Below are positions 37,276 through 37,501 of a DNA stretch of 64,000 bases, in pieces (position 1 is the first letter of the stretch; each line of letters starts with the position of its first letter). This stretch comes from Parachlamydiales bacterium. Its GTDB lineage: Bacteria > Chlamydiota > Chlamydiia > Chlamydiales > Rhabdochlamydiaceae. The position numbers and the translations under genes are program-made. The notes under the pieces were generated by a model. It saw nothing but the letters and a program-made list of their open reading frames with translations. It made no database searches and was not told where the DNA came from. The DNA lies in the NCBI GenBank assembly GCA_963705295.1, contig OY970065.1, positions 1,696,001 through 1,760,000 on the forward strand, read 5' to 3'.

Positions 37276-37382
37276 TTAGTCTTGGAAGGAGAAGGCGAGG
37301 ACGTCCTCTTCTGTTTCCTCGAGGTACTTCTTGACCCGTTCTTGGAAGTCGAAGAAGCCTGTTCCGCACGGGATCATATGTC
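37276..37382 (-). pseudogene. rpoC: diverged copy of the last ~35 codons of rpoC
   Basis: Translates [34 protein letters not shown] versus resident [34 protein letters not shown] at ~60291-60397. Confidence 0.92.
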
Positions 37383-37386
37383 GTCA

Positions 37387-37501
37387 GAAATGCCTTGCTA
37401 ATTCCTGCCTCAACCTCCCCCACCTTCCCCCCGTCCAATTCCCCAGCATCGGCACCGAAATCGTTTTCCCCATTACCTTGGGGGTCCATTATGTCTTTTA
37501 A
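37387..37501 (+). pseudogene. diverged copy of the 3' end of the OMP gene 19432..20232
   Basis: CLANS...HLPPVQFPSIGTEIVFPITLGVHYVF* versus resident CLANS...HLPPIQFPSISTEIVFPITLGLHYVF*. Confidence 0.92.

Follow-up and report, generated by a model that had tools for sequence, protein, structure and literature searches.

Homology-facilitated illegitimate recombination (HFIR), in which incoming DNA is held by a one-sided homologous anchor and joined illegitimately at its other end, has been described in E. coli conjugation and in the transformable bacteria Acinetobacter, Pseudomonas stutzeri and Streptococcus pneumoniae (PMC3240628). It has also been invoked for displaced effector/immunity arrays at T6SS loci of Vibrio (PMC5361080). 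The locus described here resembles HFIR products in having a short anchor homologous to the recipient, a homology-free end opposite and foreign genes beside a conserved gene, an arrangement that needs no integrase. It differs in that the recipient anchor has been neither replaced nor deleted but is present twice, which a circular (Campbell) intermediate fits better. The present host is an obligate intracellular chlamydia-like bacterium in which HFIR and competence would be putative, as are the donor and the intermediate.

The e14 prophage of E. coli K-12 lies in icd and is accompanied by the displaced C-terminal pseudogene icdC (Hill et al. 1989, as described in PMC13626634). The likeness is close: an intact gene has an insert-derived 3′ end, a displaced, diverged, in-frame 3′ fragment forms the direct repeat at the far border, and the differences between the two ends are mainly synonymous or conservative. 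In the same account e14 has its own site-specific recombinase and SOS-induced excision, whereas the present locus has no recombinase. It also lacks a long identical core, and its joint-side arm comes from rpoC, a different core gene.

Strings of “orphan” 3′ regions are described at Rhs, CDI and T6SS effector loci (PMC5361080; PMC6336857). As summarised in PMC5361080, an incoming module recombines within a conserved segment of the gene, and the former 3′ end is left downstream as an orphan, as is proposed for the present locus. The loci there encode polymorphic toxins in which the 5′ part is constant and the toxic tip variable, and which are paired with immunity genes. Here, in contrast, the parents are rpoC and a gene for a 266-aa protein with a putative signal peptide, the tails are conserved parts, and no immunity-like small ORF was found after the rpoC or the OMP tails.

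Methods

The genome examined is a single contig of 2.13 Mb from a chlamydia-like bacterium. A 64-kb window within it was analysed; the window is the whole of that stretch, and coordinates refer to it unless genome positions are stated. Nucleotide identity of core genes to same-genus relatives is 65-80%. Comparing the genome with itself yielded 94 low-copy repeat pairs of 60-500 nt, among which the rpoC pair was entered by hand because the frameshifted gene had escaped the ORF filter. The rpoC tails of 12 relatives were compared; G012, G008 and G007 were dropped for tail length, G013 because it was masked and G014 because of a contig end. Synonymous and nonsynonymous differences were counted by the Nei-Gojobori method. 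For a pair in which one copy has been neutral since the split, a dN/dS of at least 0.5 was taken as the expectation. The median dN/dS for the relatives was computed from 45 of the 66 possible pairs of the 12 tails, pairs with pS ≤0.1 or with saturation being dropped. The search for homologues of the 446-aa protein also took in 42 further relatives.

Results

The left conserved border of the first variable site is acpS (4′-phosphopantetheinyl transferase, Pfam ACPS) at 18809..19429 (+). It is followed at 19432..20232 (+) by the intact, resident 266-aa gene for a putative outer-membrane-like protein (“OMP”). The stop codon of this gene overlaps that of a convergent Sel1 gene by 2 nt. This is one of five co-oriented cargo genes at 20229..35226 (-), which by Pfam encode a Sel1-repeat protein of 1417 aa, ankyrin-repeat proteins of 758, 770 and 1110 aa, and an 889-aa protein with Sel1 repeats and a PARP catalytic domain. 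A 150-aa ORF at 35328..35780 (+) is doubtful as a gene; it contains a 126-nt imperfect palindrome (35621-35746) and has no family in Pfam or NCBIfam. The gene for a 446-aa orphan protein lies at 35841..37181 (-). The right border of the site is a conserved 323-aa gene (o323) at 38211..39182 (-), followed by trxB. The GC content of the island could not be distinguished from that of its surroundings. Searching 35000-39000 against Rfam gave no matches, and a scan of 35200-38400 for promoter and terminator consensus sequences did no better than on shuffled sequence. No tRNA was found in the window and neither tRNA nor tmRNA near the joint described below. A 160-aa ORF at 37268-37750 (-) was rejected as spurious; it overlaps both gene fragments in other frames and has no Pfam family.

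Between the 446-aa gene and o323 lie two gene ends without their genes. As the original prediction had stated, the interval 37276-37383 (-) encodes the C-terminal 35 residues of RpoC and a TAA stop codon, by translation and blastn, and is followed by a hairpin and the 446-aa gene. Positions 37277-37382 align with 60292-60397 at 83% identity over 106 nt, ungapped (E 2.7e-25, blastn against the whole 2.13-Mb genome). This is the only partner genome-wide and is the end of the sole rpoC, whose resident counterpart of the orphan occupies 60291..60397 (-).

The two rpoC ends are followed by different DNA right from the stop codon. Past the resident stop the ATG of the next gene, a DUF952 and peptide-deformylase fusion at 59288..60286 (-), begins after 4 nt; a terminator hairpin is absent, and the downstream DNA has no match in any of 16 relatives. 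Past the orphan stop, after 10 nt, lies a hairpin at 37250..37266 (-) with a 7-bp stem, GCUGGAU, identical to the stem of the rpoC terminator of G004, G010, G011 and G015. The score of the local alignment of the hairpin region was reached by 0 of 300 shuffles against G004, 8 of 300 against G010 and 12 of 300 against G011; this alignment, whose matching stretch is short (~20 nt), was significant against 3 of 16 relatives and not against the other 13. The centroid structure has an energy of -9.9 kcal/mol, with a z-score of only -1.3 against shuffles, and there is no U-run. The hairpin appears to be a degenerated version of the relatives' rpoC terminator. Its weakened state is a further sign of decay.

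Each copy had been described as stopping exactly at its stop codon. Compared with the resident genes this holds for both pairs. It does not hold for rpoC when relatives are considered, since a hairpin resembling their terminator follows the fragment; the orphan rpoC end appears to terminate at the stop because the downstream side of the resident rpoC has itself been replaced.

Six derived residues are common to the orphan and resident rpoC tails against all relatives, and the two tails are thus each other's closest relatives. Nucleotide identity to the orphan tail is 83% for the resident, as against 70-79% for the relatives' tails that matched. At the 20 bases by which the two copies differ, the state of the 12 relatives is found in the fragment at 13 and in the resident at 7. 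At nonsynonymous sites the fragment is closer than the resident to 11 of the 12 relatives. The orphan is, then, the more ancestral-looking copy. Taken with the six common residues and the terminator-like hairpin, the relatives' states suggest that it derives from a near, distinct lineage in which rpoC and its terminator formed a functional arrangement. The orphan also carries a G>C substitution at a glycine that is invariant across the 12 compared relatives.

The second fragment, an orphan OMP 3′ end of ~37 codons and a TAA stop, lies at 37389..37501 (+) and was identified by translation and blastn as the C-terminal tail of the gene at 19432..20232, as predicted; translation of 37385-37501 (+) gives the C-terminus of the 266-aa protein. 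Positions 37420-37501 match 20151-20232 at 89% identity over 82 nt (E 3.3e-24, blastn), and the homology extends upstream to ~37389 (= 20100) over an in-frame gap of 21 nt (7 codons). Its single partner in the whole genome is the end of the 266-aa gene, in which the corresponding left copy of the repeat is 20100..20232 (+). The two tails are direct repeats 17,269 nt apart, bracketing ~17.3 kb with the Sel1/ankyrin/PARP genes, in agreement with the earlier description. The substitutions listed there, I/M, Q/E, D/E, I/V and L/V, were all present when the sequences were compared, together with G/C, Q/F, S/G and a more diverged 10-codon block that holds the 7-codon indel. This block lies next to the joint in the orphan OMP tail and has 4 of 10 residues changed; the indel is in frame and falls between conserved strand-like segments. 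At the 5′ edge of the repeat the identical run is only 6-7 nt, the longest identical runs (13-17 nt) being inside the repeat.

The rpoC and OMP fragments abut 5′ side to 5′ side. The novel joint between them, at 37384..37388, contains 0-6 nt assignable to neither gene, and no clear microhomology or sequence common to rpoC and OMP was found there. Past the orphan OMP stop lies a hairpin at 37512..37544 (+) of -15.3 kcal/mol, with 8 of 200 shuffles folding equally well, a candidate for the OMP gene's original terminator. Some 50 nt beyond the orphan OMP tail, on its right, the segment 37551..37592 corresponds to the terminal inverted repeat in a 163-nt palindromic family present at 80 genomic loci, 37 of them full length. 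Here it is a single arm, a truncated copy. As far as can be seen it is a bystander that marks a nearby truncation and no visible cause of the tail copies.

The 266-aa gene has no match in Pfam or NCBIfam. Its product has a signal-peptide-like N-terminus and a C-terminal aromatic residue (phenylalanine), and the AlphaFold model is poor (pLDDT 40) with all-beta secondary structure; an outer-membrane protein is plausible but unproven. The gene is absent from all 18 same-genus genomes and has one paralogue, at 49%, elsewhere in its own genome.

The two pairs of tails were diverged to a similar degree. The rpoC pair (35 codons) has 9.5 synonymous and 9.5 nonsynonymous differences (pS 0.45, pN 0.11), and the OMP pair (37 codons) has 11 and 9 (pS 0.42, pN 0.11). 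For the pairs combined pS is 0.43, pN 0.11 and dN/dS 0.18, with 18 of 39 differences nonsynonymous. The binomial test gives p = 0.016 when the expected ratio is 0.5 and p = 1.3e-5 under full neutrality (1.0); without the boundary codons and the loop block dN/dS is 0.15 and 0.16 and p is 0.013. The tests cover 72 codons with 39 differences, and relatives as distant as these polarise synonymous sites poorly. The median dN/dS among the relatives' true rpoC tails is 0.09. The values lend moderate support to the proposal that the fragments are alleles from related donors and not decayed local duplicates, in that neutral decay of one copy is disfavoured; on this evidence the two members of each pair resemble alleles held under purifying selection as they diverged. 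Some decay of the orphan fragments is indicated by the change at the invariant glycine of RpoC and by the strongly diverged OMP block beside the joint.

Both resident genes had been proposed to border accessory patches, and an examination of 18 same-genus genomes bore this out. The order TRAM gene, acpS, then o323, trxB and ABC transporter gene is kept in 9 of them. The spacing between acpS and o323 is 8, 39 and 127 nt in G002, G008 and G016, respectively, 0.4-4.6 kb with unrelated genes in 6 relatives, and 18.8 kb in the present genome. At this site G012 has transposase-like ORFs. Downstream of rpoC an ABC-ATPase gene begins 79-315 nt past the stop codon in 4 of 16 relatives and after 1.2 kb in one, and the first 1.5 kb holds other ORFs in 11 of the 16. 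The distance from rpoC to the ABC-ATPase gene is 6.8 kb in the present genome and opens with the DUF952-deformylase fusion. This accessory second deformylase is an extra copy; the canonical deformylase gene lies elsewhere in the genome. In G004, G016, G002 and G008 rpoC and trxB are 15-26 kb apart on one contig, so the two rpoC tails are separated by 22.9 kb of ordinary core order and not by an element.

The statement that no integrase is visible in the window was upheld by a Pfam search of 54 of its ORFs, which gave no integrase, transposase or resolvase domain. The 446-aa protein was considered as a recombinase and rejected on its predicted fold: residues 120-446 are predicted to form an all-alpha helical-repeat (TPR/Sel1-like) structure (pLDDT 68), and the top PDB matches of the model are TPR proteins, with low TM-scores. 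The protein matches no Pfam or NCBIfam family and finds only itself among 5.8 billion proteins. Homologues at 30-34% were found in G004, G006 and G018, on contigs other than that of rpoC. The gene does not follow rpoC at any of 17 rpoC loci in relatives, examined over 1.5 kb downstream where the contig allows.

Only the rpoC and OMP pairs, 2 of the 94 repeat pairs, consist of a gene end reaching its stop codon and an orphan copy, and a second rpoC tail was found in 0 of 17 relatives. The general system of “gene-end anchor” cassette traffic that had been suggested is not borne out by these counts. A third candidate, genome positions 813726-813995 against 1073872-1074139, was rejected because its ORF is spurious and both copies are group II intron D1-D4 RNA (Rfam RF02005, 120 and 97 bits). 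Orphan segments at genome positions 1665603-1665690 and 1997272-1997341 end 24-29 nt short of the parent stop codon and were set aside as a different pattern.

The same-genus genomes and two metagenome scans contained no closer donor for the fragments. The 446-aa protein had no relative in metagenome contigs, a degenerate pattern of the clade-specific rpoC tail peptide occurred in 0 metagenome stretches, and a protein atlas gave no usable match. Neither the order OMP-island-446-aa gene-terminator-rpoC, which would be predicted for a donor, nor an empty site was found in the 18 same-genus genomes, in the 42 further relatives searched for the 446-aa protein or in the two metagenome scans; close relatives are too thinly sampled for this to weigh as strong counter-evidence.

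From 60.3 kb to ~72.8 kb (12.5 kb, running past the end of the window) the genes rpoC, rpoB, rplL/J/A/K, nusG and tuf are frameshifted, with ~1 extra base per 100 nt against all relatives. Besides this block just two other 4-kb bins of the genome are without an ORF of at least 260 aa. The block resembles a stretch bridged without polishing across the most conserved genes, perhaps in a sample with related strains. Beside it, the final 300 clean nt contain the resident rpoC tail, whose sequence may include errors; random errors at this place would increase dN rather than reduce it.

Discussion

The reading that we favour, tentatively and at somewhat less than an even chance, is that the two fragments are the scar of a single one-ended homologous insertion, of Campbell or HFIR type, from a close relative. 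A donor stretch of ~17.3 kb from a closely related chlamydia-like lineage would have entered the variable site between acpS and o323. Starting ~44 codons before the end of an OMP-like gene and ending 35 codons before the end of rpoC, it would have comprised the convergent Sel1/ankyrin/PARP genes, the 446-aa gene and an rpoC terminator, in this order. Its entry could have followed either of two routes. End joining may have closed the stretch into a circle, which one homologous crossover within the OMP tail (~130 nt) then integrated (Campbell type), or linear DNA may have used the OMP tail as its homologous anchor and been joined illegitimately at the other end (HFIR). Either route would leave an intact OMP gene, the cargo, a donor rpoC end with its terminator and a novel rpoC/OMP joint, followed by the displaced second OMP tail and the recipient's own downstream DNA.

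Direct OMP repeats together with an rpoC tail abutting the displaced OMP tail are what one closure or illegitimate joint plus one crossover predicts. The locus has putative donor and recipient copies of an anchor (the OMP tails, direct and 89% identical over the last 82 nt) and a homology-free joint opposite. One donor and one event would be expected to give matching pS values in the two pairs, as seen (0.42 and 0.45). The anatomy, the bias of the divergence to synonymous sites, the variability of both sites among relatives and the lack of a recombinase are observed; the foreign origin, the single event, the donor gene order and the circular or linear intermediate we infer. Weighing against the insertion, an OMP-like gene must adjoin the rpoC-downstream site in the donor and acpS in the recipient. 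Against it also stand the lack of a donor or empty site in the searches, the moderate p-value of 0.016, some decay of the fragments, the short and mostly non-significant hairpin match, and the position of the resident rpoC at the edge of the error-rich block.

An unlikely alternative is that the fragments are debris of several independent rearrangements at a busy variable site, with later deletions bringing the rpoC and OMP ends together. The truncated palindromic element at 37551-37592 falls within the 320 nt around the joint, relatives carry unrelated content at the site, including the transposase-like ORFs of G012, the genome holds two more orphan copies of 3′-proximal, gene-internal segments that fall short of the stop, and the rpoC-downstream site has also been rebuilt, all of which would suit such a history. 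It would, however, require coincidence for the equal synonymous divergence, and again for the exact 5′-to-5′ abutment and for direct repeats that bracket the island, and the synonymous bias would still demand diverged functional alleles, foreign or anciently duplicated. An ancient duplication is the core of a further proposal, which we consider distinctly unlikely: a tandem duplication from the OMP tail to the rpoC tail followed by complementary loss, the island being kept on the left and the core genes on the right. The order OMP tail-X-rpoC tail / OMP tail-Y-rpoC tail is the formal signature of such a joint, and both pairs would be of the same age, fitting the equal pS. Non-functional copies should nevertheless show a dN/dS of at least 0.5, against the 0.18 observed (p = 0.016). 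In the self-comparison, moreover, 20.2-37.3 kb and 37.5-60.3 kb had no other paralogous remnants in common, the relatives' core order is conserved between the rpoC tails, and the two rpoC ends differ downstream straight from the stop.

If the island were instead a site-specific element of the e14/icd type, which brought the 3′ end of its target, displaced the host tail to its far border and later lost its integrase, the direct repeats, the in-frame orphan tail and the position of intact gene and displaced 3′ fragment at opposite borders would all be accounted for. This is improbable: the 54 ORFs scanned contain no integrase, excisionase or other recombinase domain and the 446-aa protein is a predicted helical repeat, only 6-7 nt in a row are identical at the 5′ edge of the direct repeat, rpoC sequence would form the arm beside the putative core, no tRNA or tmRNA lies close by, and a second copy of such an element was not found in the present genome or in relatives. 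Very improbable, finally, is an artefact in which the assembler, or chimeric long reads from a sample with several related strains, made the join. The locally poor assembly next door, as of an unpolished bridge in a mixed sample, gives some reason to consider it. A graph misjoin would nonetheless have had no homology to use at the rpoC/OMP joint, and the repeats are short (82-113 nt) and differ by 11-17%. Intact genes flank the island, which runs on both sides into core genes in conserved order, and two independent false joins would be required.

The one-ended insertion could be extended to a broader proposal, to which we give a slim chance: that effector islands of environmental chlamydiae travel from lineage to lineage, and from one to the other of two chromosomal hot spots, with no dedicated recombinase. 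Stretches bounded by gene 3′ ends would loop out by illegitimate joining, and a RecA-dependent crossover in the ~100-nt gene tail of a co-infecting relative would insert them, the island supplying a working replacement tail so that the host gene remains intact. The rpoC/OMP joint would then be the preserved closure point of the circle, and the rebuilt end of the resident rpoC, with its derived residues and a deformylase gene replacing the terminator, would be a second instance.

The finding is a one-off scar of a known kind and reveals no new transfer system or regular cassette system; the combination of anchor homology, illegitimate joint and displaced gene tail is a mechanism already known from other bacteria. 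Its single occurrence in the genome makes it a neat example and not a new principle. The scar is most likely evidence that a host-restricted chlamydia-like bacterium acquired a block of Sel1, ankyrin and PARP-domain genes from a related lineage, and the route of acquisition would have been general recombination, not a mobile element. Two sites with genus-wide turnover of gene content, one between acpS and o323 and one downstream of rpoC, have been located, and they may be of use in reconstructing how the effector repertoires of amoeba-associated chlamydiae were assembled.

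Frame-broken rpoC-tuf block

Reading frames are broken from window position 60291 to 64000 and on to ~72.8 kb (G000:C1:1756291-1768800 in the genome under study). Each of rpoC, rpoB, rplL, rplJ, rplA, rplK, nusG and tuf is divided into several reading frames within this block. Alignment of the final 1.2 kb of rpoC with 15 relatives gave ~10 single-base insertions and one deletion, and these indels also fall outside homopolymers. Besides this block, only two 4-kb bins genome-wide lack an open reading frame of at least 260 aa. The broken frames are likely to stem from an unpolished assembly patch across the most conserved gene block.

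Palindromic repeats, intron RNAs and orphan gene segments

At 80 loci the genome carries a palindromic repeat of 163 nt whose terminal inverted repeats measure ~35 nt; it is full length at 37 of these loci and spans less than 80 nt at 34. Both copies in the window (37551-37592 and 16457-16490) are solo arms. An imperfect palindrome of 126 nt (35621-35746; 49-nt arms, 78% complementarity) lies within the doubtful 150-aa ORF 35328-35780 and is present in one copy in this genome; short stretches resembling it were found in the same-genus genomes G004, G006, G014, G015, G016 and G017.

Outside the window, RNA of group II intron domain D1-D4 (Rfam RF02005) occurs twice, at genome positions 813726-813995 (120 bits) and 1073872-1074139 (97 bits). 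The copies are 77% identical to each other, and a truncated palindromic element adjoins the second. Two orphan gene segments, at 1665603-1665690 (97%, 89 nt) and 1997272-1997341 (90%, 70 nt), derive from the genes at 1663749-1664915 and 2002218-2003954, 0.7 kb and 5 kb away respectively. The matching parental segments lie 24-29 nt ahead of the gene stops. These orphans are additional small rearrangement scars.

Genes at and beside the two variable sites

An AbiEii/AbiEi-like toxin-antitoxin pair (16463-17874, -) is directly left of the TRAM-acpS genes that border variable site 1, and a DUF4143 AAA ATPase is encoded at 9729-10880; there is thus further accessory content left of this site.

Downstream of rpoC, a DUF952-peptide deformylase fusion (59288-60286, -) starts 4 nt past the rpoC stop. 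Its deformylase is a second, divergent copy with 35% identity to the canonical one (genome 1616111-1616677), and its DUF952 part has 59% matches on other contigs of G004 and G005. In relatives, rpoC is followed by an ABC-ATPase gene; the protein encoded by its counterpart in this genome (52107-53492, -) carries an N-terminal extension of ~117-158 residues, for which no match was obtained in G016, G001, G008 or G009. The gene at 53065-54402 (+) encodes an F-box-like N-terminus followed by ankyrin repeats and has ~12 weak paralogues around the genome. Its product is a putative eukaryote-like ubiquitin-ligase adaptor mimic, encoded at the site downstream of rpoC.

Within the island of Sel1, ankyrin and PARP genes, an 889-aa protein (32557-35226, -) has nine Sel1 repeats and, matching Pfam PF00644 at E 2.8e-7, a PARP catalytic domain; it is a possible ADP-ribosylating effector.
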